A stretch of 63,910 nucleotides of DNA, counting the filler, from Bigelowiella natans CCMP2755 (lineage: Eukaryota > Protista > Cercozoa), in assembly GCA_000320545.1 (NCBI GenBank). It is 7 parts of 7 records of this genome, joined end to end, with 100 filler letters (N's around TTAATTAATTAA, not from the genome) between each part and the next. Parts side by side here need not be neighbours in the genome. Positions count along the whole stretch, not along the records: positions 23,264 to 52,946 come from ADNK01001332.1; 6 more parts are not named here. One strand, written 5' to 3'. The number at the start of each line of letters is the position of its first letter. Position 1 is the first letter of the stretch. Made by a program: the position numbers and the translations under genes. The notes beneath the pieces were generated by a model. It searched no databases, was not told the DNA's origin, and worked only from the letters and a program-made list of their open reading frames with translations. Below, piece after piece: positions 1,990-47,959 of this stretch.

Positions 1990-2720
1990 TATGACGACCA
2001 CTGTGAGTCTCGACCTGCTGCTGCCAGTCGACACCAGCTAGTTTTGACCACCACCAACAGCTAGAACAGGGTGCTGACAAGACACGCAATGATTCGTGTT
2101 TGTAGGCGCGGCTTCGTGCAACTGCGTGCTGCTAATGTGGTCCTTGCGCACGTTGTTTTGGGTTAATTCTTGGTGCAATGTTCGATGTTCATCGAAAAAA
2201 ACGACATCGTCGTCCAGACGTGCGCGTGCGTGCGCAACCCGTCGCACTCAGTGCCAGATGGGTTTGACCACGTGTTGTCAGCATGCAGCACGCGATTGTG
2301 CCGAAGATGGATTAGTTGGACTTTTGAGTGCCTGCGAGCAAGAGTGCACGTTTCAGGTCACACTAGCATCGTCAGAAATGTCTGATTTGCGTGTTCTGTG
2401 CGATCACCGCCACATCATTCTAGCAAATCACATTTAGGTTAGCAGTAGGTCGTTAGTAGGCAAATTCCATGTCGCGCAATTTTTGCCACTGCTAGCTAGC
2501 ACTGGCGATAGTAGGGAAATGAAATGTGGGGTATGGTCTACACACGGCGGTCTGTGCTACAAGCATGAGATTGTGAGGCATGCTAGCATGTGCACACGTC
2601 TAGGTGGGTGCATGCATGTTGTGTGCACAACGCACTGAGCCTTTTGTGCACACACATTGCATTGTGTACCGATTCATCAATTTATCATTTTTGTGACTTT
2701 AAGAGGTGTGTTTGTCAGGT
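1990..2720. other. TpA-poor, CTAG-rich block (moderate)
   Basis: Remaining TA lies mostly in TAG/CTA contexts. Contains catg-ctag-catg at 2579 and cactg-(ctag)2-cactg near 2487. Confidence 0.65.
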
Positions 2721-3829
2721 ACTAGGTTCTATTTTGCTCGCATTTTGGGTTGAATTAGACTGTTTCTCTCCTTTGGCAAGCACTCCTATGATGACTACAT
2801 GTCCATAAGATTCGAATTGAACCTTCTGAGGGGTAAGATACTTCTTATCTTCAGACTTACAGTCGCCTTTGCCTTCCAAATATGCTTTAACTCCTAGGTT
2901 AAAAGTCTTTGCAGTGGTTGGGAAATGGGCATTCCGGCCTCTGGTAAAGGAAAATCCGAAGTCTTTTCCGGTGGCTCCTATTCTAGCGTTATTTGATGAA
3001 AGAAGCTTTTTTATCCCCCCAGGATGATGAGATTTCTCACTGGAAACGAAATCCGAGCAGTCGCACACAAACCCGTCAATGATCGCAAGAAAATGCTCAC
3101 TGTCTTTCTCGTTATGTGCCTGGATTTCGGAAGGCCAAAAGGGACGAGGGGAGCACTTTTTCAACGACGAAGAGACGCTGATGTGGCTTGGATTAAGCTC
3201 CTCGGACCTAAGAATGCGTACCACTTTGAGCTATGGCTACAGTTTCTGTTCCGGTGTGCAACTCTTACCCATGATCAGCTGACACGACCGCCATTCGGAA
3301 GGATTCAAAAATGCGAAGTGCGATATTTGATATTTCGATGTCGCTATGATGATATCCGCGCCTTTCCCGAAAATAATGTACCAGATATTTCGACCGTGCA
3401 AGCCTGTGAAATACAGGATGTTCCTTAGTCGCGACAAAAAAAACGTGACGCCTAACAGCTTACAACGAGCGTCGTAATTTAGTAAAGTAACACAGATAAG
3501 CAGAAGGTTCTCACGGGAAAATAACAAATATCACGATAAACCGATGGAGAAAGAGAAGTGCGACAAGCAAATTTAAATGAAAAGAGGACGTTTATCGACG
3601 GCAGCGCGTGCTCCAACAGAGAGAGCTTAGCTAGTACACGCAGGAAGGCCGTCCTGGTTGCTTCAGACGCTCGCTCATCATCATGATGACACTCTTCATC
3701 ATGACACCCAACAAAGCAGAAAAGGGCGTCTATCCGTGAAAGAAATTTCTGAATGCAAAAACAGAAAGTGTTCGCCACAATAACAACTCAACCAAACACA
3801 TTCACATCACGCCCTTCCGCGATAACTAG

Positions 3830-9000: not shown

Positions 9001-9165
9001 TCGAGTAATTTTGATTTTACAATACGAATCGTGATCTGTGCTTCCCTGGATTTATGTAGCATCCTTGGTGTGGGCACCGTATTGAAATAATGACATATTT
9101 GGTTTGCTGGACAGGTTTTGATGCTTCAAAAGAGCTTTACACGACGTTGGCCACTATTATCGTAG
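3830..9165 (+). CDS. Multi-exon multi-pass membrane protein, PHTF-like / 7TM ion channel (7TMIC) type C-terminus; last exon not resolved
   Basis: Spliced exons give FYVALMFIDGGRHDNIRRAR.., LFVDLAWPQ|NISAWVKLRWLLLNIG|GQFRTRITIYSSYV.., SSIWYASATNEQFQYQSRSLARIQLRL..DDRLK|RADRLMESAVVLLNHDSKLEPVKILG|FDASKELYTTLATIIV. This parallels, in order, the PHTF C-terminal motifs as I recall them (NIKMWLSLR..G; GSETNKKY; PFRLYGL..NP.LYN). Confidence 0.7.
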
Positions 9166-9479
9166 GTCATATTAAAATCTTAAAATACTGCCAACATAGT
9201 AGTAAAAGGAAAATGATCGATCGAGAAGTAAATTCATGCGTATGTATGAGTATTGATTGTTTGTTTCTATGCATTCCATTATGAAAGACGCTATAGCATC
9301 TGTAATTATGATCACTCCATTGTCGTTTGTTCGTGTTCAACACATCAAGGGTGCCTTCATCATCTTCAATGTTTCCTTTTGTTCGTATTGCTTACGTAGT
9401 TGTGTTCATAGTTCCGATCTCGTCTTGGGTTGATGATGTTTTTTTGTGTTTTCTATCCCATGTCAGGAACTGTGTTCAC

Positions 9480-10560
9480 TGTGCTTCTTGAGTTTTACAT
9501 CAACCAGCATTCTTGAGTCTCACATCAACCAGCAATGAAGCAATGAAGCAATGATCATGCACAGTTTTCCGTTTGATGGGATGATGGCAAAGTTGTTGTG
9601 CACAATGCATATTGAAGAGAAACAGTCCATTGAATCTGCATCTCTTACAGCATCGTTTGCGACGACTAGACGAAACTAAATGCGTGTCTAGTTGTGCTCA
9701 TGTGTGAGTCGTGGGGATGTGACATGTTTTCACAAGTGCCACACACTGGCACACGCTGGCATGCTTCGGTGATGCTCATGGCACTCTGGGGCGAGAGTGT
9801 TGTGCGATGTGTTGGCACAAGCTGGCAAGCTGACAAGCTAGCTAGCTAGCAAGCATGACAAAGGCAAACACCAACTGTCTGCACAATTGCAGTCCCAGCA
9901 CACAAGCTAGCAAGCTGCAGCTGCAGTGCACGCTGACAGGAATCTGGCAATGCAGAGCGCTGGAATGGCCCACTTTCGCAACAGCTGAGAAGCAATTTGA
10001 CTGGCACTGCTGGACTGCCAAAACAGGGAACACACATCTAGACGTACCAGAAACTCACACTCTGCTGGTCTGTGTCTGAATGACGTGAAACGACACTGAA
10101 CTCAAAACAGTGCTCAGACCCATCTAGCCATTGCCATCGAAGAGTGTTTGCAGCAGCACTCAGCACAAGCAAATGTTCTGATCATTTTCACTTTGCTGGT
10201 TTGTTTGCGGACGATGCCAAAATGAGTCTTGATTCATTGATTGCTTGTGCTCACTTCGTCATTCCAAGGTGCACACTTGTGCTGCAGGTGAGCTGGAAAA
10301 AACGTTCGTCTTGTTGCTGCTGGAGTGTTTGTCGAATGAGCGTGACCATTCCAACCCTGCGACAATGACAATTTCATGCCGTTCGTGCAAACGACATTCA
10401 TTTGCTCCGACTTGCATGAAGAAAGCCCCTGAGTTTCTCAGATGTTTCAGACATTGCAATCTTGGAGAGAGACAGATCATTGGCTCGGTCGTAGTTGGAA
10501 ATGGCCTGGATTGCATGTTCCCTCATGATCGAGCCTCGCTAAAACCCGCTTTAGGCAATC
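9480..10560. other. TpA-depleted, CTAG-insertion block
   Basis: Very few TA outside CTAG. Contains acga-ctag-acga 9662, caag-(ctag)3-caag about 9834, caag-ctag-caag 9903 and ccat-ctag-ccat 10120. Confidence 0.85.
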
Positions 10561-11188
10561 AAGAGCAGCTATCATAAAATGAGGGAACGACAAGCACCTT
10601 TGTTGTCGCAACAGCCACAATGCACTGGGCCGCCCCGATTCTGACCTAAATCGAGAGTGCGAAGTCCCCAGATTGATGCTTGCGCGAGTACTGTAGTTGC
10701 TGCTTCGGAAGCTTCGAACCGTATTGCGGAGATGCAGGGCATGGTTGAAGAGCGACAAAGTTTTGTGCTCCGGAGCAAGATAAATTGCTGGCAGCATTAA
10801 ACCACGCACAGGGCGCTGAGCTGAGTTCGAGGTAGATCCTCATGGCGACCAAGCTTGCTCCTTTTCCTACGTTTTCTCAGATGGTAGTCCTTGAGTGGGT
10901 TCTAATGAATGGCGGACATCATGAAGCGTCCGCATGACCAGGAGCCACCTGAGAAGTGTAAGAGGCGTCGCCCTATGCACGAGCATGGACAACCGGAACC
11001 AGAACCAACCAGTTCTCAATCATCAGGTTTTGAACCGTGTTGAAAATTAACTGTATCAATAGCACAACAGCGGAAGTTGCATTTTGAAATTTTTTTTGTC
11101 TTGGGATGCCAGCAACCGCCACATACTCGTGGCTGTTGGATAGACATTTAGAAACATACATCATGACCCTGCTATTTCTATTTAATGC

Positions 11189-12808
11189 ATGGGTATCCCT
11201 TTGTCACATCTCTCCTACCTTGTGATGACTTTGCTTCACCTTGTGCACCCCTTAGGTGTCCCACTCCTCCCGTCATCTACTAGCTATCCAACAGATATAT
11301 CCCCCATCCACACACCAGTTCGTCTAGTTCACAGAACAAAGGTTTTGTGCAATCAACTGAGGCATAGTATTTGTAATAGTTTGTTTTACTACAGGATAAT
11401 CGACCTCGCCCTTACGTATGCGACATTTGCCATCGAAGATTTACGAAACTGAGCAATAAGGATGTAACGTTTCAGTCTCCATTGCAGTGACACAATGATT
11501 CATGCATTGATGAATACATTTAGAGACACAGGAAACTTCATACAGGAGAAAAGCCATACGTGTGCAATATCTGCTCTAACAAGGCGTTTGCTCGACTGAG
11601 CTGCTTAAGGGTATCCGAAATCCGTCTTGAATTTTCTTGCTGATGTCAAGTTGTATACTATGTCAGCGCCATCAGAAATCGCATTCTCGAGAAAGACTTC
11701 TTGTTTGTTCATTTTGTGGAAAGCGGTTTGTTCATTCCAGCGATTTGCGAGTACGTACATTACATCGATTCGTGAGTCATACATCACACCATTTTACTGG
11801 TTTTAGAGACATCAAGTTCACCAGCACTCGCAGCTTCCAGCTTTTGAGAGAGAGGCTACTCTTCCACACAGCCCAATACCTCCCCTTGAGTCTGTTCCAC
11901 TACCAAGTCCGCCTCGAAAGACTAACCTCGAACAACCATCGTCGTCATACTACCGAAAGCCTTCGAAGATTTCTCCCGTCGCTGAACTATCAAGCCCATC
12001 TCCAATTAGCTCTCTTCCTTCGCCATACCACAGTCCTCGGTACTCTCACACATTTCCAAAGAATCCCAACTCGTCCCAGGGAACTCCTGAATCACAAAGA
12101 TATTTCCATCCATCGTACCATAGCAATAAAAGCCTGTCAAGTACGCCAGTGTTTCCTCAGTCTGATCTACATAATGTGGGGTTACTTCCCTCAATTCCTC
12201 CAGAAGAACTAAAGCAAAAAAGTAAATATCTACCAAGACAGCCTAGTCTGCAGCAGACAAGCTGGTCTAGAAATGTAAATCCTCCACGTAATTCCCCAAC
12301 AACAATAAGCCTTATAGACATACCAAAAGAAGTTTTTGTTCACCCCCGTCCTTCATTGTACATTGATTCGCATGACGTTCAAGAAGGGCACAAAGATTTG
12401 CGAGTCTCAGGGCGAACTTCATCTCAGCGAAAAGACCGCTCAGGGCGTGATCTCAGAGTGATTCCCTACACCTATGCACGTATTGAAGAAAGTGGTGAAA
12501 TCGAGGAACCCAGTACCAATCTCCGTTTTGTTGCATCTGTACCTCGACGAATTCCTCCGCTCGCTTCAAGAATTCCTCATATATATGCAGAGGAAACTCT
12601 TCAAACTGCACCGATATCTTTGTTACCTTCGATTAGGACTTCTGTTTTGTGGCGTTATGACTCGCCACCGCTTGAGGCAGAAGTTGATGCACGATCTTTA
12701 CTACGAGAGCGATTAGCTGCAGATGCAGTTCGCCACGCACACAGTCAACAAACATATTTCAAGTCTGAACAAAAAAAGTACCTTGATAGGAACGACGTAG
12801 AAGCCTAA
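11189..12808 (+). CDS. C2H2 zinc-finger protein (3 fingers) with a Ser/Pro-rich C-terminus
   Basis: Spliced exons give [19 protein letters not shown]|[29 protein letters not shown]|[28 protein letters not shown]|RHQVHQH, including the canonical TGEKPY linker. The last exon continues into ORF 12149..12808. Confidence 0.9.
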
Positions 12809-12949
12809 CAGCTCTTTCACTTACGTTAAAATTCACATTTTTGCTTACAGTCATACTAAATTACATGAACAACCCGCTAAAAATATCGTTGCGAGTTGGG
12901 GCACGTGAACTAGCACTGCTTGAGTTTGGATTACTGCTCAAAAGTCACC

Positions 12950-14450
12950 ATGTTGTTGAACTCTCGACTAGACTCTACCAATTAGCACGATTTTCTCATA
13001 CATACGATCCCAGTGAATTCACATTGATGTACGAAGGATTTTGTTCACTACACAATCAACCTACACATTTTGTTGTGTCAAGATCAGTAACTTGTCTCAA
13101 ACATCATTGCATCTCTAGTCCCACAAAATGCGCGCAGGTCATGCTAGCATGGTGCACAAATTGAACACCTAGATGGTCTAGTGTTCATGCACTTCAAGCA
13201 TAGTTGCACATCTCTAGATCAGCATGCAATGCAGTGCGACATCCATTTCCAGTCCGCTAAGTCTTTCTTTGGTTCTGTGTGAGTGTCATGGAAACGTTGG
13301 TTCTGCTAGTCTAGACACCGTCTGTGACAAACAATCAAGCAAAGTGGCTAAACTAGCAAAGACTTGTTCATTGATGAACCCAAAGTCAAGAGGCACACTG
13401 GCATGGCACCACAGCAGTCTAGGCCGTGTCTAGATCCAAACTAAAAAAGTCTTCAAGAGGGACGTTGCAAAAAGAAATCTTCGTTTGAGACCTCAAGATC
13501 ACAATGAGGTCATCCACACTGGCACTCCAGCACTGTCTAGCTAGCTAGCTAGCTCGTTCTAGCGCTCACACCGATCTAGCTAGCTAGCGATGATCCTGAC
13601 TCCAATGACATCTGAAGCACTAGCTAGCTAGAGCAGTCTCGCTAGCCCGTGCAGCGTGGCACACCTTGCTGGCTTGCATTGCGATCGTCAAATTTCTGGA
13701 TCATCATTCCAAAGCTAGAAAGGCCGCACGTGCAGACCAAGCTAGCGAAAGACGTGCATTCACGTTGAGATGATGCGTGTTTCATGCACGTTTGATCTAG
13801 TGATGGCCAATCTAGCAGCGCTAGAATGGACATGAAACACTCCTCACTAGCTCCAGAGCTAGCTAGCTCACCCGCAAAGCCCAGAGGCACCTGCTAGCCT
13901 GGGGCAATCTAGCAATCTAGCACTGCCACAACAGATAGGCCCAGCGACACCGACACATGGCTAGATGGACAGCTAGCTTGTTTGTTGTTTGCTAGTTTGG
14001 CTAGTTGGGGCAACCTAACAACACGCACATTGATTTGGAAACAGCTCTCACAATTGACTAGTTGAAGCCGCTGAACCGCTTTCTAGCTTTGCTAGTTTGG
14101 TGTGCGCGAAATTTCGCAGCATCCCTAGATCCGCTAGCTAGCTCTAGAGCTAGGCTCTAGGGCTAGTAGGTCCGGCCACACGCACACGCAAGCTAGGAAG
14201 ACATTTCTAGATTTCTCGATTTGACGGCACATGTCTAGATGTCTGGTGTGCACTGATGCGTTGCATGCATTAATTGTGTCCCAGCGTTGAGAGCACACCA
14301 CCAAGCATATCAGCATGGCTAGATGGCTAGATCTAGAGACGGCTTGATGTCTAGATATGGCATGGCTTGCTAGCTTGACTAGTTCTAGAGTTGATACTGC
14401 TGTTGATGCCATGTTCATCATGCTTAGTTTCAGCGAGACTAATGTGCCAT
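12950..14450. other. TpA-depleted block with the highest density of NNNN-CTAG-NNNN and (CTAG)n arrays
   Basis: About 16 perfect duplicated-flank CTAG sites between 13140 and 14392, plus (ctag)n runs at about 13538-13552 and 13576-13587. Confidence 0.9.
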
Positions 14451-15611
14451 CACATCAGAATCCATCCCTGGGTTCTCCTCTTCTTAATCATTTTCGTTCT
14501 CGCACGCCGAAGTTGTGAACATTTTTCACAACTGTTGTTTGTGAATCCGGGGCAAAACTGAGCCAAGCTGTGACATGAAGAACACACTGTTGGCATGTTT
14601 CTTGGATCAGGGTGATAATCCTGCGGAATTTTGGATTTGTTTGTTTTGACCCATTTAAAAATACGCTCAGTGTACTCTGGTCTTGACATTGGCGTCAAAA
14701 ATTTGCGCCACTTGATTACCTACCGAAAAGAACAAAATCGATGCATTGCCGATGCGCTTAAGTAATACGGATTGTGTCCTGTAAAACGAACATAAGATGC
14801 TTCTAAATTTTATCTTTTAAAGCGTTAGCTTGGATACCGACCAAATGTGCATGTACGCATAAATGTTCTAGCTTCATACGCATAAATGTTCTAGTTTCAT
14901 ACCTGCAACCATGATGTGGGAATTAAATGAATCTCTTCTTGTGTGTAGATTATTCCTGGCTAAATATGTACAAATATTGGCATAGACTATTCATCTCATG
15001 GAGTAAATGCTTGCGTTTTGGAACCTTGTAGAGAGTCATGCAGAGATAATTTTCAATGATAGCCGCCACCTGAGTGAAGAAGTAAAGATTTCATTCAGTA
15101 TTTAAACATTTAATTTGAAAGAACCTGCTCCATGTTCTGCATTTTACGTTCACAGGGCACCTGTGCAGGAAACAAGGGTATGCACTTAGCAATCTTCCTC
15201 TGGACATATCGCTGAGGGACATCTTGGAAACCACATCTCCCTTCTATGGCTCCATGTTCCCTGAAATCAAACATGTATCCATATTATGAAGAGAATCTAT
15301 GTCGCGCTTCGGAACACCTTACGTAATCTTCAAGTAAGCTTTGTCATTTTTCTCGATCCCAGTCAAAACGGCTCGAAGTCCCATCAATTTTACGGTCTTC
15401 AGTTGATATGAGTGAAAATCTTTGGGCTTCTTACTGCCAAACGACCGAATCTATCAGTTGTTCAAAATTGATTCAGCTGATGTCACGACTCAAAAATGAT
15501 GCATGTTTTACTTGAACCATGTCCCCCACGCGAACATTTCCTCTCTTCTCATCACCCTTACAGCGGAAGGGCTGCATTTTCCAAGCGTGATTTGGTCGGT
15601 TCCTAGATCAT

Positions 15612-15853
15612 TCTCTTTGATGCACATCCGAGATCATCCGAGGATTCAGAGACAATCCGGAGAGGTCGCTCCTTGGAAGAAACTCCAACGAAACTCCAGA
15701 TGTCATGTGCCTTGGAAAACATGAGTGCGACAGAACATTATTTGTGTTATTTTAAAGAAAACACGTCCTATGGACGTCGTGGCATTGCCGAGAAAGAACC
15801 TTGCACTTTGTGCTGTCGCAGCATTCCTGGACCTCGGATGTGCATCAAAGAGA
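15612..15853. repeat. Perfect 21-nt inverted repeat pair, 200 nt apart
   Basis: tctctttgatgcacatccgag (15612-15632) and its reverse complement ctcggatgtgcatcaaagaga (15833-15853). Confidence 0.85.
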
Positions 15854-16110
15854 GCGAAATTTTCCAAAATAAAAAAGCGCTTTCGATGATTCAGCAGACA
15901 GATGTGATGTGCATTGACTCATCGTGGCGCATACCCGTCTCGTGAAGCCTTCAACCCTTTGAGTCTCATTTCATCCTCCCAGGTGCACGCCTTCGAGTGC
16001 AACGCAGGCAAATCCTGGTTTACATCACGCCGAATTTCCTAATAATTTCTCTTCAGAACTCGTGTTGATTGCTACTGTTCATGTGCACTTGGGGTTAAAA
16101 GAGCATTTAG

Positions 16111-17392
16111 ATGAAGGAAGCTGCCCTCGACGCTTCGACGGTTCGGGGTTTGCGGTGGAGGTTCGTCGTCCTTTGGGTAGTGCTGCTAGCCTCCTCGGTC
16201 TTCCTCTTGGACACTTACATCGTACCAGCATGGATCCTGTGGTGTAATCCCCCGTGGCCTGCTCTCCCCCGCCTGAATATAAAGAAAGGGGGAGTTTCCA
16301 CGGCAGGGTTTTCCAACGGTGCCGATTTCGCACACCAGTTGCACATTACTTACAGTTCTGTGATCGATGCGACGTGCGTTTTCGCGGGCCAGCCGTTCCA
16401 CTGTGCAGCGACCAGATTTCCTGATGACCATCTTGTGGAAGCCATCCCAGCGTCCTCCGTTCCGACATGTGTTGGCTGTCCAAGCGGCAAGACCCTCATA
16501 TATGATCACTGCAAGGTAACCTGCAAATATTTCACTCTTATCCAATATTTTGATTACGTGCAACGATGTTACAACGCTCCAATCCTAGGCACACCCAGAA
16601 TGGGTTGACATTGGTGCTCTCCCTGATTACCCTCGTCGAGTGTGCGATGGGCGCGGCCTGAATACCAGCGTCTGTATGGACCATACCGACAACCTGAGCG
16701 ACGATCGAGTCTTCCTTTTCCGAGGCACTCAAGATCGGTGCTACAAGCCAGGCTCTGTTGAAAACGTCCAGCATCTTTACTCGATGTTCCTTGAGAAACC
16801 TGAGGCGCAAATTCGCATGGTGAACACCGTAGGCTACGCTCACGCGTTCCCTCGAAATAAGACCAAAATACCGGGCAAAAAGCACGGCTATGATGGAGCA
16901 GGAGAGTGCCTAAGATGGATATATCCCGGAGGTATCAAACCAGCAGTCGACTTTAAGAGAAAGAATATTTATAACTACAACCAGGATGAATTTATGCAAG
17001 CAATCTCTGGAGTTGGCATAAATGGGCGCGGTCACTTGTACATACCAGATGCTTGCAGTCCCCCTACAAAGGCAGCAGGAGCTAATGCTGACGCCACTAC
17101 TGCTCTCCACAAGACGAAACCGTGCCGTCTCGTAATTCTTGCTGCTGGATGCAATGGGTTTGGAGGATGGATTGAAAACTTTGCAAAATACGCAGAGAGC
17201 AATGACATAGTCTTGCTGCAACCGTGCGTCGGAGGGTATGTTGACCCTTTCCGTTACCCGGGCGCACATGAAATTAAACGAGGAATGCTTGATGTGTATG
17301 GACAACTCAGTAGAGACTACACGATGAAATCTGCGCCACACATGAAATTTGTAGGACAGGTATTGGAAAAATTGAGTGGATGGAAGGTGTGA
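16111..17392 (+). CDS. Poly(3-hydroxybutyrate) depolymerase-like alpha/beta hydrolase with an N-terminal hydrophobic segment; 2 exons (16111-16515, 16589-17392), about 402 aa
   Basis: The GT-AG intron 16516-16588 joins both ORFs in frame. Motifs: VSTAGFSNGADFAHQLH (GxSxG near the N-terminus), FAGQPFHCA, FRGTQD (Asp) and YAHAFP (His), as in type-II-like PHB depolymerases. Confidence 0.8.
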
Positions 17393-17519
17393 TTTACGTC
17401 ACAATTTAGCGATGCAGCAAGGAGGATTCTTGAAATTTTGTCACAGGAACCTCTGGCAGATCAACATTAGAAACTAGGAAACCATTATTAGCATGTACAC
17501 AAAAATGTCGTTTGGCTTC

Positions 17520-17802
17520 AATTCGATGCGCCCAGGCGTACACGCTACGGTGCATGCTGGCATGCACTCAAATCCAGCTGGCTCTGGAACTTGGCTTCAT
17601 GATGTTCAATTTCAGGCTTTTTCCTTCGCTAGATCGCATGAGATGAGAGCTTGTTGAATGCAACAACGTTGAGAATATTTTCCATTGAAGACGATGGCTT
17701 CCGCGACTCAGCGCCCGCAGCCTTGTCTTGTGGCATCCACACACCTAGACACAACTAGACAAACACACACAGACACATCTAGACATGCACACACATGCGC
17801 AT

Positions 17803-17838
<36 letters not shown>

Positions 17839-18400
17839 GCACACGCACAAACACACACACACATCTAGACATGCGCATGCACTAGTGCACGCACACACGC
17901 ACACATGTGCTAGCACGCACGCTAGCACGTACGCACACTGGCTAGACCACATCTGCGAAGCAATCCATGGCTAGCAGACAGTATTGCTAGATTGACAGGC
18001 TAGCAGCAAATAATCATGCAGGGCTGGCCATCTAGCCACGTGTGTGCACATGGAATGGCAATGCCAGCATGCTAGCATGCAATGCCAGATCGAACCATTT
18101 GATCCAGCATTGTTGAAAATCCCGCAACGCAGTCGCAGTGTGCGGCAACCTGGCAACACCACTTCACGCTGAGTTGTGCATGCCTGGAGCTGCCAGCTTG
18201 CTTCTTCAGTCTAGCTAGTGCTAGAGTGCTGTGAGCGCATCTTGTTCTGCGTACATGGCATGACATGGGGAGGACAGCTCAGGACAATCATGATGATGAC
18301 TAAGAGGGCTAGAGGGGGGCACTGAGTGCAATGCATCTAGCTAGCTAGTCTCTAGCTAGCTAGTAGTGGCACCTGTCTAGCTGAGCAAGGAACATCAAGG
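17520..18400. other. TpA-depleted, CTAG-insertion block with a degenerate CA/TG repeat
   Basis: acac-ctag-acac 17741, acaa-ctag-acaa 17751, acat-ctag-acat 17775 and 17861, cacg 17918, attg 17983, catg 18068, agtg 18217, aggg 18305. Confidence 0.88.
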
Positions 18401-30833: not shown

Positions 30834-32981
30834 ATAGTAGTAGTATCCCCACAAAGTAGTAGCCGTATGGTATATCAGAAACAGAAACAACTGAAAATCC
30901 GTCCGACAATTTCGCACAGTTTCTTTTTGCTCTGGGCTTGCGGAAACAACGGAGTATATCTGATGATGCTAGTGCTGCTACTACCTTGGAAGGGGCCAGC
31001 TCATCTAGTATCTCCAGTACCTCTACAACGATGTCCTCCTATTGTTAGTGGTGTGTCAGTAGTAGTAGTAGCAGCAGCAGCATTGAGATGCGGTGCCGCA
31101 TCGATGGGTGATGGGTGGTGAGCAATAATATAACCAAGGAAAGACGATAATGATAGCAGAAATAACATCATGCACCGAGTTAGCCGGCACCTGTCCTTGC
31201 TTGACGGCAAAGGAAAGCGCGTTGAGCATGAGCGGGATCAGCCGTTCAAAATGCAGGATCTCCTCGTCCCCTCCCACTTTCCCGGCGAGCGATGCGAACG
31301 CACGCAAAGCGGCGATGGAGACGCGCTTGTCGCTGTCCTTCAGGCCAGCTTCGTAAACGCGCGCGAGTTTCTCGGCGTATGCATCCCCGTCCATGAGCCA
31401 AAGTCCCACCTCATCCGACATGAAGTACAGCAACACCATGCTAACCTCACGGGTCTCGGCGGCACCGCTGGCCATGCCCGCGAATACGAAATCTTCAAGC
31501 TGCTGCCAATTTTGCCTGTAGAGGAGGAGGAGGAGGAGGAGGAGGAGGAGGAGGAAGAGGGGAGGAAGGATTTAGAAGTAGAATGGAAATAACCGAGCAT
31601 GCTGGCCGTGCGGTGTAACTCTAAATAAATAGTGCATGTAGCGATTTGGAATTCTGGGACGAGTTGAGGACTTGGGCAATTATATATTATCATCATTTCG
31701 TCGTAGGAGGCATGAAGATTAGACGCAGCGCACTCTCGCACTTAGTACCTCCAATGCACGCGCTTGTTGAGCATGGCTACAGAAGCGGCGGTGGCGCGCC
31801 GAGACAGAGAATAGGGTTCACGTGTCAAGAGTCCCAACAGCAAAGTCTTAAAGATCTCCACAATCTCCACCTTCTCAGGGCCCTTGGCCTGTTTTGAAGG
31901 AGAGGATAAGAGAAGAAAGGAGAGGTGGTGGTTATTGTTAGGAAGGCGGCGGGGGGGGGGGGAGGGCCAACGAGTCACGATTAGTATGCGAGATTATTGC
32001 GACAAGATGCACGAATTCAACATTGAGATCGTGTCATGATCATCTATCATACCTCAGCGATCCTTGGCCAGTGGGCAGCCATTGTCTTACGGAAGAAGGT
32101 GCCTGCAATTTGCCGAACTTGCGCATTGGTGTTTTCCAAGGAGGTCATGATGTAAAGAAGTGACATCACGGATTGCGCCTCCTTAAAGGCTTCCTTGGCA
32201 AATGTCTCTGCTGCCTGCAGCCGTTGCGTATCAGGGGCAAGAAATTCTTGCATGCACGCAGCGATTTGCGAGGTGGCTTGCATGTTGATGTGAGCCTCCA
32301 GGAGCCGCTTCGCCTCGTCGTACGTAAGGACGCGTGCAGACTTCCGCTTATCGCCCCCCTCCAGTCCATCTCCTCTCTTTGAAATGTCTTGCAGTTGCGA
32401 TTGATACCCCTGCATCATATCCTCCTCGTTGGCGCCGCCGCGCAGGTGGCCGATCGAGGACAGAATCGATGAGAACGCCCGTAGTCCCCTTCCTCCTAGA
32501 CAATGCTGCGACACTTCGGTATTAATCCTACCATTACTAGACTGTGGCGATAAGCCGGCACAATTTCGCGACTCAGGCCTTGTGCGCTGGGGCACGGCGT
32601 TTAGATTGCCTGGAGCACATCATCAGAGTGCGTCAGATTTTGGAAGTGGTGGCGAGGCAGATGCCCCTCAGATATACTGTCCCTGCGATCGAGTGACAAG
32701 GCATGTCGCTCAAATTTAATTTCCTACTAGGTTCAAAGGCCTCGCAATGCCCTATAAATGGTGGTGTCTCGTGGTTCATCATCATCGAGTGAATAACAAA
32801 GACCTGGGTTGTGCGTCGTGACTGCGGCGATGCAAACGAGCAAGAAGCAAACGAAAAAACCGCTGGTAAAACCAGACCGACGAGTCTGATAAACCTTCTT
32901 CTCGTCATCGCGGTCCATGGCGTGTAGTAAAGGTTCCTGCGCCAATGGCCCTCCCCACGCCCGAGAGGCCTCGGCCGCCAT
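23264..32981 (-). CDS. Importin-beta family karyopherin (importin-4/Kap123-like HEAT protein) with a bipartite N-terminal leader; many exons, 3' end truncated by linker
   Basis: IBN_N-like FLAPDTQRLQAAE..NAQVRQIAGTFFRK..HW. HEAT exons include NWQQLEDFVF..ETREVSMVLL..DSDKRVSIAALRAF, ALGAIADGCADSLRPHIDSLL..LQDPDIRV, IKGRTMEAAG|TVGTIAKAVG, an acidic insert and VRMAAIESIP. Exon 1 (32981-32804) splices in frame to 32609. Confidence 0.85.
27081..27173. repeat. Perfect 45-nt tandem duplication in an intron
   Basis: aacgattcccttccactgaccgatcagaatcaatcgaatcggtat occurs twice (27081-27125 and 27126-27170). Confidence 0.95.
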
Positions 32982-36674: not shown

Positions 36675-39302
36675 TCATTCATCATCGTCCCCCTCCTCCG
36701 TAGGTGCTAAAGTCGGATTTGCTGATGGAGCTTTTATGTCACCCTGCTCGAGATTCCTTTTTTCCTCCGCCGCTCTCCTCATAGCCTCCTTTTTGGCTTT
36801 CTTCATGGCCTTGCGCTTCTCCTTGTTTAGTTGCTTCTTTGTCTTTTTCTCGGAGACAGGACGGCTGTCATTCACAGCCTTGGCGTCCGTGTACTTGACC
36901 AGTTTAGCCTCCACGTTATACCGCTTCTTGATGTCCTCGTCGCATACTTGAAAGTCACTCTCGATAAACGGCAAACGGTAGGAGCGAAAAGCTCTTGTGA
37001 ATTTGTCATCACTCTCGCCCTTGTCGCCGGATTCGAGGCGCTTAACCTGTTCCTCTTGCTGACTGCGGAATTTCTCGACGCCCCGTTTTAGCAGCGATCT
37101 CAAGATCATAGAGCGCGTATGGTAGCCCGCACGGCACTCAATGAGACGGCCGCCCACGTCCATCTTAGGCTCGAGGGTCGTAGGACCGAAATCCACGAAG
37201 TCACATCCCTCTTCGAGCGCCTTCTCCACAGTCAAGGAGAGCATAGCAAAGTAGGCCTTTGTGGGTCTTGCGACCTCATGTCGAAGCCCTTGCATGTCTG
37301 AGGTGATCAGCTTTGCTGCAGGGAACTCAAACAACACTGCCGTGCCTGCAGGGTCTCCCTGCACGCGGATGCCGAAGATGCGGCGGTACTCAGATTTGTG
37401 CTCCTCGCATATGGCTTGCATCAGGGGTGGCAACACAGGTACCAAAACGGCTGATTCGCCTCGTGAGATGCGCTGCTGAGCAGTGAGCTGCACCAGGCGG
37501 GAACTAACCTCCGCATATTCCTCGTCAAAGTCCCTGAAATCACGCGAGACGTGAACAGTGCCGCCCTTCTTTTGAAAGAATCCGTGGTGGTTGCGACGGT
37601 TTCCCTTTTTGAGCGCGACGCGCTGGAACTCTTTGTATTTGAGCCCATGGTAACGTCTTAAGTCGACCACGACAGAAGGACCTACTTGTAGGTTAAGGAA
37701 ATGCGCCTCCTCAAAGGCCTGTGAGTCAAGCTGGGTGGCATAGCAGGGTGACATGAGAACATGGCAATTGATGCCAGAGGTATCCTTCCAGTTCACGATT
37801 GCGCGCTGCACCATCACCATGTCGTATTTGGGTTGATCAGATTTGACGAGGAAGATGCCCGAATGGAAAGGGTACTGGAAACCGACAAGCCCCCATCTCA
37901 GACTCAGGATGGGCAGGAAGCCGTTCGCACCGAACAGTACCCCCAGCACGGAGCCGAGGATGCCAGGCACGTAACGCGTTAGATCGAACTTTTCAACGAC
38001 GGTCACAAATACATAAGCCACTGAGTCGTCTCCCCCAAATTCCACATCCTCGACTGGCCTGCCAATGCGCAGGATGATGCCTTTGGTATGAGGAATAGGA
38101 GATTCTGCCCCCCCTGTGAGCATATTGGCGTAAGTACGCATGAGTGATACTGCTGCGTGACCATCCCAAGCGCCGATGTAGCGCGTACCAAAACCTGCGT
38201 TAATTTTGTCGCCCCACTTTTTCGCAGTTTCTTCGTCGAGATCCTCCACATCAACCTCTTCTGCTACATAGGCTGATGGAAGCCTTGGGTTAAGAATTTC
38301 ATCGTACGCGCTATGGATTAGAAATGTGACGATGCACACGACAAATCCTACGGCGGCATTGAGCTCCAAACCGGTAAGCAGATAGCGCTGGCCAGCTCGG
38401 ACCTCCACCACGACTGCGAGCCAAAGGTTGCCGAAGGTGAACGTGAAACTGGTGCCCAAAGTAAACATTTCGATCAACAGGTAGGGGATTGGCAACGCGG
38501 TTGAGGAAAGGAAGGCGGTGCTCAACGCGCTGTGCGAAACAGCTGTGATGAGCACGCCGAACACGGAAGAAATGCAACAAAGGATTCCTACAGCGTTCAT
38601 GCCGTGGAACATCCACATGTTGTGATCCGACACTAGAGATGAGTTCATCGAGATAAGGGTTATGCCCATGGCAAAAAGAAGTAGGTTGGAGGCGAGAAGT
38701 AGCATTTTATTGCGGTCCTTCTTAGTGACTTGCAAGAAACTCAGCTTGGCCATAAGAGCATAGAATTCTGCTGCTCCGGAGGCCATCAGGGAAGCAGTGA
38801 ACATAACGTAATGTGAGGTATTATGCGCATCTTTAATGCGGGTCCAGAAGATGATGGCTATCATCGTTCCAAAGAGAAGGATGAGAGTCATGCACATGGA
38901 GACGCAATTTTCGCATGACACGAGCCGAATTAGTCCAGCTTGACTTGGACTGTAGTCCCTAGGAGACGAAAGTGGTACAGATTGGCCCTGAATTAAACTT
39001 TCCTTTTCCTCAACGTCCTTCTCACTCCTAGCGGTGGCAATTTTCGAGCTCGCACGAACGTTAGTGTAGCAAGCAATCACGGAGTTGACCGCCATAATAG
39101 CTGAAAAGACGAGCCCCCAACCAGCGAACAAACAGAGCTTTGAGTCGCAGTTGTCATCTCCGACCACTGCTAGGATGGACGATATGAACAGGGCACCCGC
39201 GCTTGAAACCGTAGCGGCGAAAGATAACCAGAGATGCTTCATAGTCTTTTCCTTGTCTTTCACCTCAAGGAACATGGTGTCCTGATGATCGAACTTGGAC
39301 AT
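36675..39302 (-). CDS. Apparently intronless ~875-aa protein: N-terminal multi-pass TM region, FemAB/GNAT-like domain, and a Lys-rich then acidic tail
   Basis: Long uninterrupted ORF (first ATG at 39302) with about 8 hydrophobic helices in the first ~340 aa. The C-terminal YFAMLSLTVEKALEEGCDFVDFGPTTLEPKMDVGG resembles FemAB-like GNAT C-termini. Confidence 0.75.
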   Translation of the reverse strand: MSKFDHQDTMFLEVKDKEKTMKHLWLSFAATVSSAGALFISSILAVVGDDNCDSKLCLFAGWGLVFSAIMAVNSVIACYTNVRASSKIATARSEKDVEEKESLIQGQSVPLSSPRDYSPSQAGLIRLVSCENCVSMCMTLILLFGTMIAIIFWTRIKDAHNTSHYVMFTASLMASGAAEFYALMAKLSFLQVTKKDRNKMLLLASNLLLFAMGITLISMNSSLVSDHNMWMFHGMNAVGILCCISSVFGVLITAVSHSALSTAFLSSTALPIPYLLIEMFTLGTSFTFTFGNLWLAVVVEVRAGQRYLLTGLELNAAVGFVVCIVTFLIHSAYDEILNPRLPSAYVAEEVDVEDLDEETAKKWGDKINAGFGTRYIGAWDGHAAVSLMRTYANMLTGGAESPIPHTKGIILRIGRPVEDVEFGGDDSVAYVFVTVVEKFDLTRYVPGILGSVLGVLFGANGFLPILSLRWGLVGFQYPFHSGIFLVKSDQPKYDMVMVQRAIVNWKDTSGINCHVLMSPCYATQLDSQAFEEAHFLNLQVGPSVVVDLRRYHGLKYKEFQRVALKKGNRRNHHGFFQKKGGTVHVSRDFRDFDEEYAEVSSRLVQLTAQQRISRGESAVLVPVLPPLMQAICEEHKSEYRRIFGIRVQGDPAGTAVLFEFPAAKLITSDMQGLRHEVARPTKAYFAMLSLTVEKALEEGCDFVDFGPTTLEPKMDVGGRLIECRAGYHTRSMILRSLLKRGVEKFRSQQEEQVKRLESGDKGESDDKFTRAFRSYRLPFIESDFQVCDEDIKKRYNVEAKLVKYTDAKAVNDSRPVSEKKTKKQLNKEKRKAMKKAKKEAMRRAAEEKRNLEQGDIKAPSANPTLAPTEEGDDDE

Positions 39303-39799
39303 GGGATAAAATCCTGTCCTTCGTTCCAAATTTTGATCTCACTGGACCTGGAACAAGGAATTTGATTTGATCTCTGTAATGTAACAATTAGGACAACAGA
39401 TAAGTTCGGGGGAAATGGTCAAAGTTGCAACAATCATTCTACATTCTGGATTTCTACGACGGCATTCGTGAGCGAGCCCAATTAAAAAGTCATTCGAGAA
39501 GTAATCAAAACTGCAAAGGTTGAATTAAAAATAACTTCCGTGCAACAATAAGTACCAAGGTATGGGGGGGAGGGGCGAGGGTGTTCAGCTGATTTGACCT
39601 CTGATGGTTTGCGATTGTACGTATCGAGCAAAACATCGAACGACAAGCTAAATTCAGTGCAATAATGTGTGTACGACAATTCAGGTTCTCTGTTTTTGTT
39701 AACTTATTTGCCGAAAGCTTTCGAAGTGTGCCCAGCTTCGGTTTCCATCTGGTTCTGACAGAATTGGCCGGAATACATGGAAACAATTGTCCGGAATCC

Positions 39800-41200
39800 C
39801 CGTCATCATTCTCATTTCACATGCAAATGCATTACTTCCCAAATGCAGCGACATTGTGTTTCGGGCTGCAGCGTGATCCCTGCATGCCTCTCGAGACTCT
39901 CGTGTTTGGAGTGAGATTGACACGAATGATGAACGGAACACAGAAGAAATTGCAAAAGTTGCATTTGGTGAGCACAATGCCAGAATGGGACACTTGCAAG
40001 TGCTTTGTTGCCTGGCAGTGGTGAATCCCATTCAGTTGAAAAGTGCAAAGGAAAGAAAGTGTTGTTCACAGCACCTTTCAATGAGCCATGCTAGCATGTC
40101 AAAACACCAGAGAAAGCCAGGAAGCGCAGCAGACACGATGCTGTGACCCATCACAGCCAGGTTGTTTGGTCTCAACGTTCGTGACAACGAGTGCAAATGG
40201 CACCAGAAAAGTGGACACGTCACCACACGATGTCACTTGCATTGATGAGATTTGCACGCATTCGCTGCGCACCAACCATCAAAATGAAGTGAGTTGGCCT
40301 TCGTGGACGAGCGTCCTGACAAACGAAAGTTCTGGAGTTCATTGCTGCTGGTGATTTGGCTCAATTGGGTCCTGTTGAAAGTGAACGTTTGTTCAATGAC
40401 ATTGGAGTGTGGGGCACGTTGGGCATGATTCTGACCCAGCAACACCACAGCTCCGTCAAACCTGCAACAAATTTCAGAACGTGCATTTGGAAGCTTTTGC
40501 GCGCGACCAAGCGCGTTGTGTGATGCAATGGACATTGGATTTGCTCGCATTTCTTTGAAATTTTTCGTGCACATGAAGATTGGTCAAACACACGCGCAAA
40601 AGCATTCAAAATATGACAAAGAAGAAACGCGCAGCGTGCATCCTCTGCACAACGGGTGTGAATTTTCACACTTTGCGCGCTCACTGAGCCTTGAAAATGG
40701 ACATTTTGGTCAACATTTCGGTCATTTTTTGAGGTTTGGCCATCGGACAAGCTCTGATGACTTTTCGTTTGTGCGTTGACCAACTGCAACTGCCTGCTGC
40801 TTCAAAGCGCGTCGCGAAGCGCTGCACTGTTCACAACCCAATTGTCACAGGGTTTGATGGAGCGGGGCACACGTGGTGTGTCCAGCATGTCAGACGTCCA
40901 GACGTGCTGCTCACGTCTTGTGCACGTGCGTGTGCATGACATCACGTTGTCCAGACACAGTGATGATGTGCATGTGTGTGACATTTGCACACCATGTTGC
41001 GTTGTCCATCATTATGACTGGAAATGCATCTAGGCATGTGGCGCAGCTTGCAAGATGCGGCCCCGCTCGCAGGTGACAGTCAGCTAGGTCATCGACTACT
41101 AATCGAACAATGGCACCATTGCTAGACAGCACCGCAAACAATTTGACTACCACATTGCACAATGTTTCTACAACATTTGTTGTGTCATACATTTCATGAT
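39800..41200. other. Extreme TpA-depleted block
   Basis: Only 2 TA counted in 39841-40980 (1140 nt), one of them inside CTAG. Confidence 0.93.
39990..40975 (+). pseudogene. Fossil superfamily-1 (Pif1/RecD-like) helicase, likely from a mobile element or virus
   Basis: Motifs appear in the correct order across frameshifts: I PGSGESH (40011), Ia KVLFTAPFNE (40056), II DVTCIDEI (IDEI at 40241), III IAAGDLAQLGPV (40341), IV ILTQQH, V TVHN..SQGL (40826), VI RLVHV..SR (40914). Confidence 0.8.
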
Positions 41201-41246
41201 ACTCGCTCGCACCTGTTCGTTCTCCTCTGCATGCAGCGACACGCTG

Positions 41247-42458
41247 CTACGAAGAACCTAAAAGTGCATGCGTATGTTCTATCGTGCCTTTTCGTGGTCT
41301 CCCCGTTTTGGCTTCTAGTTCTTTGGATGGAGCTTCAGTTCCACTTTTGGGGGGAGGAGGGTTAAAAGTTCTCAGCGCTATTATAGCAAATTCGATCAAT
41401 AATGTAAGGATGAGCGAGATGCTTGTGCAGTTGAGCAAAACCGCCATGAGCGTGGTCACTGGTCCTTCGGCCATTAAAGCGAATAGACAAAGAGCGCTCA
41501 GAGAATGGATAGACAAAAGGCCAAGTTGTACAACCGTCATACGTGGAACGTTGAGGGTTGCAACATCCTTAATGGTAAACGAATCTGTTTGGGAGGGAGT
41601 GAGGTAGAGTTTATAGTAGAAAATCAGCCATAAAAAATAACTCACGGCAGTCGAAGGGTACACAAGCCCTCCGCAACTTTCTTCTATATCGTCATAATTT
41701 TGTAGAAGGCAATTCAGCGGTTCCATGAGAAGATATATAACAGCTGCTTGAGAGGCATAGCCTTCAGCGAATATAACCTCGTACATGTGTTGCTCTAGTG
41801 AGTCGCTCTTAGCAATATTTTTCCTCAATATTGGATAGACCAGTCCAAGAGCTATTCGAATAATTGTGTGGAAGACAATTTCAACGAGATCGGAAATCAA
41901 GGGATTTTCTTGTTGGCAATACCCTGCCACGATCCCAGCGAAAGTTCCGAAAATCAATGCGAAATAGTGAGCCAGGTGAAAGAAGTCCTCATAGTGTCTA
42001 TGCACGGGGTCTGCGATGATTGAGATGAATGCCGAAAAAGAACAAGCGATCGTAGTTATATAGCACAAGTAGGCGTACCACGGGTCTCCTGTTGCCCCAT
42101 ACATAAGTGCGATGATGGTACTGGGCCATGAGAAAACGAAATGGAAACTGCGGAAGAAACGATGCAGCCTCGGACGAGAATCGTACCGGGTCCCCGTGAA
42201 ATCTTTCGATGCATCATCATCACTCCTTTTAACGTTCTTTCCCTCTTTCTGCATGTTTTTATTGATGTTATCCTTAGCATCTTCAGCAACTTCATCCTTA
42301 ACTTGCTGGCGGACGACGTTGGGTAGACTGTTTTCGTGAATCCTTTTCTCCGAGTTGATTGAATTCTCGGAAAGATCAATCGCACCACTGTCCCGTGATG
42401 CCTCCACAACGTGCATCTTCCGCTTTTGCTGCTCTCTAATTTTGCGTCCATTAGGCAT
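41247..42458 (-). CDS. Hypothetical multi-pass (about 7 TM) membrane protein, 403 aa, single ORF
   Basis: Long ORF with a hydrophilic N-terminus followed by about 7-8 hydrophobic segments. No family recognised. Confidence 0.7.
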   Translation of the reverse strand: MPNGRKIREQQKRKMHVVEASRDSGAIDLSENSINSEKRIHENSLPNVVRQQVKDEVAEDAKDNINKNMQKEGKNVKRSDDDASKDFTGTRYDSRPRLHRFFRSFHFVFSWPSTIIALMYGATGDPWYAYLCYITTIACSFSAFISIIADPVHRHYEDFFHLAHYFALIFGTFAGIVAGYCQQENPLISDLVEIVFHTIIRIALGLVYPILRKNIAKSDSLEQHMYEVIFAEGYASQAAVIYLLMEPLNCLLQNYDDIEESCGGLVYPSTAVSYFLWLIFYYKLYLTPSQTDSFTIKDVATLNVPRMTVVQLGLLSIHSLSALCLFALMAEGPVTTLMAVLLNCTSISLILTLLIEFAIIALRTFNPPPPKSGTEAPSKELEAKTGRPRKGTIEHTHALLGSS

Positions 42459-46390: not shown

Positions 46391-47959
46391 TTATTTTGTA
46401 ACCCATGATTTATATTCTGCATTATCATCATCATCATCGTCCTCATCCTCATCCTCATCCTCATCCTCATCCTCATCCTCATCCTCGTCATCTTCGTCCT
46501 TATCTTTATCCCCTGCCCTCTGCTCCAGTCGCTCTTTCTCTATCAATCTTCGCGCCGCCTCGTTCGCCTTTTCTGTTGCCGCCTTTCTGACGGCAATGCG
46601 ATTTGTTTGGATGTTGTGCACCTGTCGCTTCATTATAGCTTGTTGGCACGCCACAGAGCGCAGCGTAGCTTCCATGAAGTTTGAAGGCATCCGCTTGTGC
46701 TCTGCGAGAAAGAACCCGAGCATTAAATCAGCACGGGCGTCTCCGATGGGCTTATTGATCGGCGGCTGAGAGTAGTAATTCATCCACTGGGTAGCGATGA
46801 GTAAAAGACGAAGGGGAAGAGAGGGGGGCGAAAGAATAGCCTGCGGCTGCTTCTGTTCTCCTCCCGTGCACTGCGGCTGTTGCTGCTGGATGAGAAAGGG
46901 ATACGCCGAAGGGATACTGGGATCCTGGAAGGTGAAGGATATGGCGAGCCGCGGGTGTGCGGCCAACTTTGATGCACGACTTCCCCAGTGAAGAAGACGA
47001 TGTGTGAACACCAACAGGCTACCCGCAGCTGCAGGTAGAGCCCGAATGTCTTGGAACAAAGAGGGACTCTCGAAAAAGGCATCCTTCCACGATTTCTTCG
47101 CTTCCCCCTTCCGCTCCTGCACAGTGGAACGGTAGTGTGCGTCCTTGCATGCCGGAAGGACGTAGAGGCAGGAAGTTTCTGGAGTGGCGTCGGTGAGTGG
47201 GACCCATGAAGTCGTGATCTTTGAATTTCCGTCTTTGTCGAAAGTGGATGGGTCGTACGACATCTTATCTCGATGCGGTGGGTATCCCTCTGCGTCTCTG
47301 GCCTCTGGGCCGACGAAAAAAGCCGCGAAGTCGCCAGAGGGCTGGGCCTTACTCCCCGTTGCCTTATGAACCTCAATTATCTTCTGAAGCAGGATCCACA
47401 TCTCATCGTAAATCCCGATTACGTGTGGCGGCCAGCCAGCTGTTGAGAGGCGGGAGATTCCGTCAGCGAGCCGCTCCAGTATGTCCTCTTCCCAGCATAA
47501 CTCCTCTGGGTTCACCTGTTGCATAAATTGTCGGTAACAAGAAAACAAAAGGAATATATTGCAAAAAATATGCTCTTGACCCGAAAGTAGCCGTCATCAT
47601 GAAGCCCCGCATTGATTGATTGAATCCTTTCTTTGGGGAATGCCAAATCCTGTCGCTACGTTATCAATACTAGTATTCATTCAACTGTTGCGAAGCCAAA
47701 AGGTGTGTTGTACCTTCTCCATGCAGCCTTCCTCTCGGTCCCGTTTTTTCCTCTTGAGACTAAATCCATTCACTGTCAGATCCGGACACAGAGACGCCCT
47801 GAGCACAAGGTAGCCTTTTAAGAGATTTTGACGACAGCATAGTAGCCCTCGCGCATGCACAGCTTACCAATACTGATAGCTTGACGAAAATGCGAATGAG
47901 GGCACATAATCCGTGGACGTTGTCGGCTTGCTGCTCTGCTTCGTGGCCCCCCCCTCCAT
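46391..47959 (-). CDS. Phytanoyl-CoA dioxygenase (PhyH) family Fe(II)/2-oxoglutarate oxygenase with an acidic tail; 4 exons
   Basis: Motifs: LHDDGYF, PPHRD (HxD), WVPLTDATPETSCLYVLP, AGSLLVFTHRLLHWGS and PRLAISF. The last exon spans 47515-46391. Confidence 0.9.

Follow-up and report, generated by a model that had tools for sequence, protein, structure and literature searches.

An intergenic island in the nuclear genome of the chlorarachniophyte alga Bigelowiella natans raises the question of what kind of gene once stood there and which processes ruined it. The island lies at 39835-41010 of a 63,910-nucleotide stretch of DNA (hereafter the window; GenBank assembly GCA_000320545.1), and it holds a broken reading frame that an initial annotation took for a fossil superfamily 1 (SF1) helicase, damaged by changes of TpA dinucleotides to TpG or CpA and by insertion of CTAG. 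The joint reading developed here, to which we give about an even chance, is that the frame is a helicase remnant of a Polinton-like virus (PLV) or virophage, ruined by A:T-to-G:C editing centred on TpA and by CTAG footprints that an excising transposon left behind.

That the fossil is a dead piece of an SF1B (Pif1/RecD-like) helicase gene of viral or mobile origin is almost certain. With its stops masked, the frame had exactly two phmmer matches among 1.84 billion proteins, P0009 (309 aa, E 2e-13) and P0010 (1,205 aa, E 3e-9), and the family profile matched the raw frame at E 8e-11. In a frameshift-aware alignment with TpA-aware scoring, the core at 39910-40403 (plus strand; residues 782-927 of P0010) scored 246, against 21 ± 2 in 30 shuffles; along the best path it was collinear with five close relatives over 146 codons, with 11 insertion gaps amounting to 56 nt and no deletion. 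The core comprises a linker and motifs I, Ia, Ib, II, and III. The alignment of relatives places motif I (Walker A) at 40011-40034, and, together with the family profile, motif Ia at 40059-40085, motif II (Walker B) at 40226-40252, in a frame other than that of motif I, and motif III at 40338-40376. The frame from 40011 on which the annotation was built is present as quoted, ending at the catg-CTAG-catg site at 40087, and so are IDEI (40241) and GDLAQLGPV (40350). Identity was highest to P0009, the closest paralog (90/145, 62%), and to P0015 (88/146), followed by the intact relatives P0010 (75/146) and P0011 (74/146, 51%), and reached 24-36% for the other 46 relatives. In a tree of 52 rows, whose bootstrap is not fully settled (51 of the 52 proteins of alignment A1, P0026 being dropped as too short, plus the fossil), the fossil grouped with P0009 and P0015 (100/99) on a long branch nested among the intact P0010 and P0011. 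Other searches added little: none of 433 candidates scored in a word-based protein search with the masked frame, and Pfam gave no informative match for the raw pieces or for all six stop-masked frames of seven TpA-poor islands of the window. Contig depth rises slightly over motifs I and III (39974-40107 and 40242-40375), where a few other contigs align at an identity of at least 80%; these are probably further helicase copies.

Only motifs I-III survive. The annotation had read further, and this part of it fell away: its motif V, TVHN/SQGL (40826), lies within a high-copy repeat whose right inverted end is SQGL, and its motif VI, RLVHV (40914), does not match the motif VI of the family (W-T-A-I-T-R). 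Neither 40404-41140 nor 39650-39909 aligned with the family on either strand (best TpA-aware score 26, with shuffles averaging 19-22 and reaching maxima of 24-32), nor with C-terminal B. natans copies, and a PolB remnant suspected at 39800-40000 is not borne out, the stretch 39650-39909 scoring like shuffles. Homology begins at 39910, in the linker; motifs IV-VI and the PolB-like domain of the relatives were not found in the window, nor were a capsid gene, packaging ATPase, integrase, or element ends around the helicase. The fossil is a fragment, not a whole gene.

Its family can be named with some precision. Searches from P0010 gathered 62 relatives of at least 662 aa and 20 shorter ones, including five named B. 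natans gene models (aug1.11_g5081, aug1.32_g10883, aug1.37_g11818, aug1.87_g19089, and aug1.87_g19090). Most are 1,000-1,450 aa long and combine an SF1B helicase at the C-terminal side with a middle domain like that of phi29 and a tail rich in cysteine; the paired cysteines of the tail were seen in P0011 and P0081, without a Pfam match to the HNH domain that PLV members carry at the C-terminus, and the tail is not in the window. The family profile matches RecD, RecD2, and Dda, and structures of Pif1 and RecD were matched by the model of relative P0024 (predicted local distance difference test, pLDDT, 88). When the P0024 model was compared with BFVD, the viral entry H6WBE3 (999 aa, E 1e-34) came out best, near full length and far ahead of the others; accessions of this type are probably transpoviron proteins. 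The middle domain has conserved D, KxxxNxxxG, and KTDC columns, and its predicted structure in the viral relative L122 (pLDDT 81) resembles phi29 DNA polymerase (E 1e-5; Z 11.3, root-mean-square deviation 4.2, 213 aligned); by sequence it had no match among PDB chains, PolB being seen by fold search only. The available part of one report describes Tlr1-like SF1B helicases fused to an inactivated protein-primed PolB (pPolB) in Polinton-like viruses (including PLV-Bnat), Tlr1, and transpovirons (Krupovic et al., 2016; PMC5499653). The relatives of the fossil share that architecture, with several copies in B. natans gene models, whereas the window retains motifs I-III only. The fossil belongs with the pPolB-fused, Tlr1-like helicases that Polinton-like viruses and virophages encode, and the fragment is a remnant derived from such an element, not an element itself.

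Relatives were encoded on ten viral contigs among 76 pattern matches. Of three loci examined, two carry an rve integrase, accompanied in one of them by an A32 ATPase, and the third carries Sputnik-type capsid genes: L119 is a Sputnik-type virophage contig with a pPolB-fused helicase, and L121 and L122 are PLV-type, the helicase standing beside the integrase. The pPolB-fused helicase gene moves between element types, and since relatives occur in both PLV-type and virophage-type contigs, the donor of the fossil may be either. DNA patterns for motif III gave no match in viral contigs, in two attempts, and P0010 alone as query gave none confirmed there; 100 open reading frames (ORFs) from the ten viral loci had no match in the window outside the helicase. 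The Pif1/RecD-like type and the viral or mobile origin that had been proposed hold; the Helitron source proposed beside them does not, because the relatives carry a PolB-like domain. Helitrons encode a Pif1-like helicase and end in CTRR, so that the CTAG sites could be Helitron 3′ ends, and a Helitron transposase did appear at rank 42 of the fold search. However, the relatives have a pPolB-like domain rather than a Rep (HUH) domain and are located in capsid-encoding contigs, and the CTAG sites have 4-bp duplications, while Helitrons make no target duplication. A Helitron, or else an assembly artefact or chance, is a very improbable account of this locus.

Aligned to its relatives, the fossil fixes the direction of its point changes. 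The Walker A lysine, invariant in 52 of 52 aligned sequences, is Glu at 40023 through an A-to-G change in TpA context, as the initial annotation had read it, and a second Lys-to-Glu change at 40038 had been overlooked. Its other reversions fared unevenly: His from Tyr is supported by three of five close relatives (one intact relative has His), and Cys from Tyr by both intact relatives, and Pro from Leu is supported too; Ser from Leu is wrong, as all five close relatives have Ser, and Thr from Ile stays unproven, four of four relatives having Val. The full spectrum was drawn from protein comparison rather than ancestral DNA, at codons away from indels. Among 103 informative codons, 68 were unchanged, five needed several changes, and 30 differed by a single step, of which 27 were A:T to G:C, three were transversions, and none was G:C to A:T, although under uniform codon use the opportunity for transversions was four times that for A:T-to-G:C changes. 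This agrees with the direction that had been claimed, A:T to G:C centred on TpA. Sixteen of the 27 lie at TpA (15 plus one ambiguous with a transversion) and 11 elsewhere (six at CpA, three at GpA, two at ApA). Composition has shifted with them: in viral relatives G+C is 24-31% and TpA numbers 103-125 per kb, and in the fossil G+C is 47%, with a single TpA in 494 bp. That the fossil underwent TpA editing is very probable.

Less-mutated copies, which had been recommended as a check, exist among the paralogs. Cys or His replaces 44 of 51 conserved tyrosines in P0015 and 17 of 46 in P0026, which are earlier stages of editing. In P0026 the change is graded (7/8 conserved tyrosines in residues 1-200, 1/14 in residues 401-600), and P0015 is saturated while the adjoining model P0074 looks lightly hit; this suggests that editing spreads from one end of an element. 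P0074 (gene model aug1.87_g19090) continues P0015, and a truncation after motif III common to three copies was rejected on that account.

TpA editing in this alga has already been described. The available part of a preprint reports measurements in B. natans lines, where integrated viruses are hypermutated from TpA to TpG or CpA, and proposes an ADAT2-like deaminase as a hypothesis without proof (Mettrop et al., bioRxiv 10.64898/2026.01.13.699255). Species, change, foreign-derived target, and TpA-poor islands rich in CpA and TpG are the same here. In that part of the preprint, however, new mutations fall at TpA only and in regions of 25 and 186 kb; here the islands measure 0.5-1.7 kb, 11 of the 27 A:T-to-G:C changes lie outside TpA (including TA to CG), and 8-bp insertions are present as well. 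The share outside TpA goes beyond the preprint and weighs against the joint reading as stated, since it needs an extra assumption, either slower off-target editing or older divergence. Editing likely spills beyond TpA, and, because proteins were compared, older divergence may account for part of the share. As in fungal repeat-induced point mutation (RIP), a comparison cited in the preprint, dinucleotide-specific hypermutation ruins invading DNA. The direction is opposite, A:T to G:C with TpA removed. We know of no insertion component in RIP.

The insertions form the second process. The stop that had been blamed on a CTAG insertion at 40087 does break the helicase frame: at 40087-40098, CATG is duplicated around CTAG, an 8-bp insert that brings a stop and a frameshift after motif Ia. 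Four more sites of this type lie in the same island beyond the one first noticed. At 39976-39987, AATG surrounds CCAG, probably a CTAG later edited at its own TpA, and the frame breaks; at 40328-40339, just before motif III, AGTT surrounds CTGG, probably another decayed CTAG. As the sites at 39976, 40087, and 40328 sit exactly at jumps of the helicase frame, sites of the CTAG type are insertions. The other two are recognized by the duplication pattern, ACGT around CCAG in TpA-free DNA (40894-40905) and GCAT around CTAG at the island edge (41026-41037).

In the window as a whole, 61 of 240 CTAG have the form NNNN-CTAG-NNNN, a 4-bp duplication with CTAG between its copies, against 1.08 expected; five have 3-bp and two have 5-bp duplications. 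Islands, defined by TpA loss after masking of CTAG, cover 13,040 bp with 200-bp margins and leave 50,342 bp outside, and 58 of the 151 CTAG inside them are duplicated, compared with 3 of 89 outside. Seventeen further inserts have decayed to CTGG or CCAG, 16 of them in islands (duplicated CTGG, 11/59 inside and 0/125 outside; CCAG, 5/52 and 1/127), as expected if the insert's own TpA is edited later. The densest island (12900-14450) has 59 CTAG, 23 exact 4-bp duplications, three decayed ones, and nested runs, and is itself single copy. Others carry 13 intact and two decayed inserts (17401-18400), 10 and three (57691-59050), four and five (9501-10570), or only four inserts (48091-49800). Iterative collapsing of eight islands removed 62 exact, 18 decayed, and 25 one-mismatch events; inserts reach about 17 per kb and had added up to 22% of one island's length. 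The targets have a symmetric bias, (C/A)NN(G/T), with C first in 48%, A in 35%, and G in 5% of the 64 targets other than CTAG itself, and fall in 33 different 4-mer classes. Three long host ORFs and the ten viral loci had no duplicated CTAG site. The stretch 9300-14600, which includes the densest island, was reproduced without difference in 4/4 runs, so the inserts are no assembly error; likewise 38500-40504 was identical in 2/2 DNA runs, the assemblies being independent. Runs of (CTAG)n are common to about 120 other contigs per run, with unrelated flanks, and therefore the scars are widespread in the genome.

Several other repeats were seen in the window. Tandem duplications of 7-8 bp without CTAG occur at 48500-48610, 58260-58305, and 9530-9555, in mild excess over the rest of the window. 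Within a TpA-poor island, the stretch 48490-49300 looks like a decayed transposon end, holding a 95-bp repeat in direct orientation (48490-48584 and 48606-48700; 89%) and other short repeats, and 242 bp at 15612-15853 with perfect 21-bp inverted arms are possibly a MITE (miniature inverted-repeat transposable element).

We tentatively favour, at a little less than even probability, an origin of the inserts as excision footprints of a cut-and-paste transposon with CT(AG) ends and a 4-bp target duplication, because the duplications are of fixed length, the target preference is symmetric, and the palindromic core is constant, as expected where a transposase has inserted an element and excised it again. 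By analogy, a transposase would cut its targets with a 4-base stagger and insert an element whose ends begin CT(AG); on excision, two to four terminal bases of each end would remain and be sealed by end-joining as CTAG, and repeated hopping into the same silent, unselected patches could give the clusters and (CTAG)n runs. Those patches would be the ones in which TpA has been converted almost to exhaustion, likely by the alga's proposed adenine-deaminase defence, and which in the helicase island hold a descendant of the pPolB-fused family, with G+C raised to 47%. The two processes appear to overlap in time, as 17 of 78 inserts had their own TpA edited, and yet would be separable. Excision footprints of mariner and Stowaway elements keep the target duplication and end bases, according to the accessible text of two reports (PMC4561436, PMC2170065); these too are symmetric, the duplication being kept around a few bases. 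Here, by contrast, the duplication is a variable 4-mer rather than TA and the core is nearly invariant, so the element would not be a Tc1/mariner, and density reaches the level given above although no donor was found in the 64-kb window.

A number of points weigh against such footprints. Intact elements that have CT...AG ends and a duplication of 4 bp were not found in the 64-kb window, against some 80-105 scars, and no flanking element is common to the contigs that share (CTAG)n runs (agreement 0.38-0.48). To our knowledge, no transposon superfamily combines a variable 4-bp duplication with CT ends. Inserts cluster only modestly inside islands (of 66 gaps, 17 measure at most 20 bp, with 10.7 simulated, P 0.02), and 45 of 146 island CTAG lack a 4-bp duplication after collapsing. 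In the consulted part of one report (PMC12730881), the DDE transposase orthologs of B. natans number just eight. Candidate sources were also tried and dropped. A TTAA-flanked CT...AG element at 52431-52902 is a microsatellite coincidence. Healing with the nucleomorph telomere repeat, which contains CTAG, was rejected because spacers are exactly four bases and most follow a G. Carry-over of CTAG flanks by a piggyBac-type element would, by reasoning alone, give CTAG without duplication, which is not the main class, and could cover part of the 45 unduplicated sites.

The near-confinement of inserts to edited DNA also speaks for a different maker, the host itself. A domesticated transposase or integrase, or a nuclease with a nucleotidyl transferase, would be guided to chromatin marked by the TpA editor and would make a 4-base staggered cut sealed by a fixed CTAG linker, an 8-base frameshift that carries TAG on both strands, as a second arm against viruses and transposons. 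We consider this possible but doubtful. It would explain why the TpA-edited fifth of the window holds 58 of the 61 intact inserts and 16 of the 17 decayed ones, why no donor is seen (about 100 scars and no visible donor), and how inserts came to make up so much of one island. Unselected silent DNA would, however, collect ordinary footprints too, and P0015, edited near exhaustion, shows no indel against P0010 over about 930 residues (as a gene model in which introns may be hidden), from which it follows that editing and insertion are not tightly coupled. The available part of the preprint likewise gives 21 indels genome-wide in 3,132 generations, a standard rate (bioRxiv 10.64898/2026.01.13.699255). 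The full form of this account, a two-armed DNA-level defence against integrated viruses and transposons in which an A-to-G editor works with a dedicated CTAG linker-insertion machine, is unlikely. If it were true, the machine would have stamped marked patches some 90,000 times, in order of magnitude, across the genome (from 61 per 64 kb, extended to 94.7 Mb; such counts are extrapolations from one 64-kb window and contig overlays), shifting their frames and planting stops on both strands. No eukaryotic genome defence by templated or fixed micro-insertion is known to us.

Less regular events in the same DNA invite a third explanation, by-products of break repair. Topoisomerase II-like enzymes make four-base staggered breaks; if such breaks were filled in and a polymerase added a CT or CTA tail to each end before joining, CTAG inserts would result, and the same sloppy joining would yield both the fossil's insertions of 1-4 bases and the near-miss duplications. 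One-mismatch duplications number 31, where permutation gives 12.5, and many involve transversions; the helicase path has eight further gaps of 1-11 nt and no deletion; and tandem duplications of 5-8 bp are in mild excess in islands. What makes break repair improbable is the dominance of one constant spacer: CTAG occurs 61 times, the next palindromic spacer, AGCT, 11 times (as (CTAG)n runs would produce it), and the rest 0-6 times. Spacerless 4-bp duplications are not clearly enriched (2.68 per kb against 2.44 outside), though they number 83 against 33 in shuffles. The duplicated 4-mers, moreover, are not centred on edited TpA, now TG or CA, contrary to cleavage beside paired inosines, which was rejected for this reason.

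Just downstream of the point where helicase homology stops, the helicase island holds a high-copy MITE-like repeat of about 420 bp at 40446-40865, short, noncoding, and with terminal inverted repeats (arms at 40450-40462 and 40851-40863). Its summed contig depth is 6,744-17,566, compared with 75-98 alongside in run X1, with the same jump in X5 (depth is not copy number), and loose contig ends lie at 40446 and 40861-40863. This copy is edited as well, with one TpA against 29 expected, and copies of the family show TG and CA as alternatives at 40517-40518. At 40480-40481 the window has CG where other copies have TG or CA, which fits a second hit, an A-to-G change outside TpA. The flanks of other copies lead one to expect a TA target duplication, and the left flank here, CA, fits an edited TA; other copies continue TGTG past the right end, which is degenerate in the window copy. 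The inverted ends of the family begin CAGCTCC, and the window copy has two insertions of 8-10 nt relative to others, near 40676 and 40767, with no clear CTAG core. The MITE end pattern recurred at 118 metagenome loci as chance 15-mers, none blastn-similar to the island. The initial annotation held that both processes target mobile or viral DNA. This helicase, together with a MITE, is the one identified target; that CTAG insertion is aimed at foreign DNA as such does not follow from it, the six other islands having given no informative Pfam match.

The island lies between two host genes on the minus strand, at 36675-39302 (ORF 39302-36678, 875 aa, weak GNAT match) and 41247-42458 (ORF 42458-41250, 403 aa, no Pfam match), both with normal TpA and no duplicated CTAG site. 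Because both ORFs cluster with protein Bigna1|74475, the host is B. natans; they also cluster with separate transcript-derived proteins, one of 403 aa and the other of 875 aa. In the island, at 39835-41010, TpA is observed twice against 76 expected, one of the two being a CTAG insert (a sliding window extends the island to 39701-41140). The gene model Bigna1|74475 (P0006, 1,422 aa; 36675-42458, minus strand) fuses both genes through antisense pseudo-exons inside the helicase island, at about 40744-40388 and 40017-39835. Loss of TpA deletes TAA and TAG stops, and edited islands therefore breed false exons. Two RNA runs barely cover the island, which says nothing on transcription either way, and Rfam had no match in 39000-42000. 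Other ordinary host genes on the minus strand of the window are a PhyH-family dioxygenase (46391-47524), importin-beta/IPO5 exons (31059-32619), and a cytochrome b5-like domain (2718-3230).

As a viral gene in decay, the fossil merely adds one case to others; it matters because it offers a frame of reference from which the direction of both processes can be fixed. With the helicase family and TpA editing already known, the novelty rests on the CTAG insertion signature, which goes beyond the TpA editing of the preprint. The signature was not found described in the literature searched (titles and abstract openings, mostly without subscription papers), and CTAG had no text match in the available part of the preprint (bioRxiv 10.64898/2026.01.13.699255), whose supplements could mention it, or in two rhizarian genome papers. 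For the alga, the locus shows that editing, described in 2026 in two large viral inserts, has also run its full course on kilobase-sized scraps between ordinary genes. Such edited islands escape homology searches and create false exons, as in Bigna1|74475, so that foreign DNA in this genome is probably undercounted. As a mutational signature, the 8-bp scar, present at about one per kb of the window and almost only in edited DNA, suggests either a transposon chemistry not described before, in which a variable 4-bp duplication goes with a CTAG footprint, or a genome defence of a new kind.

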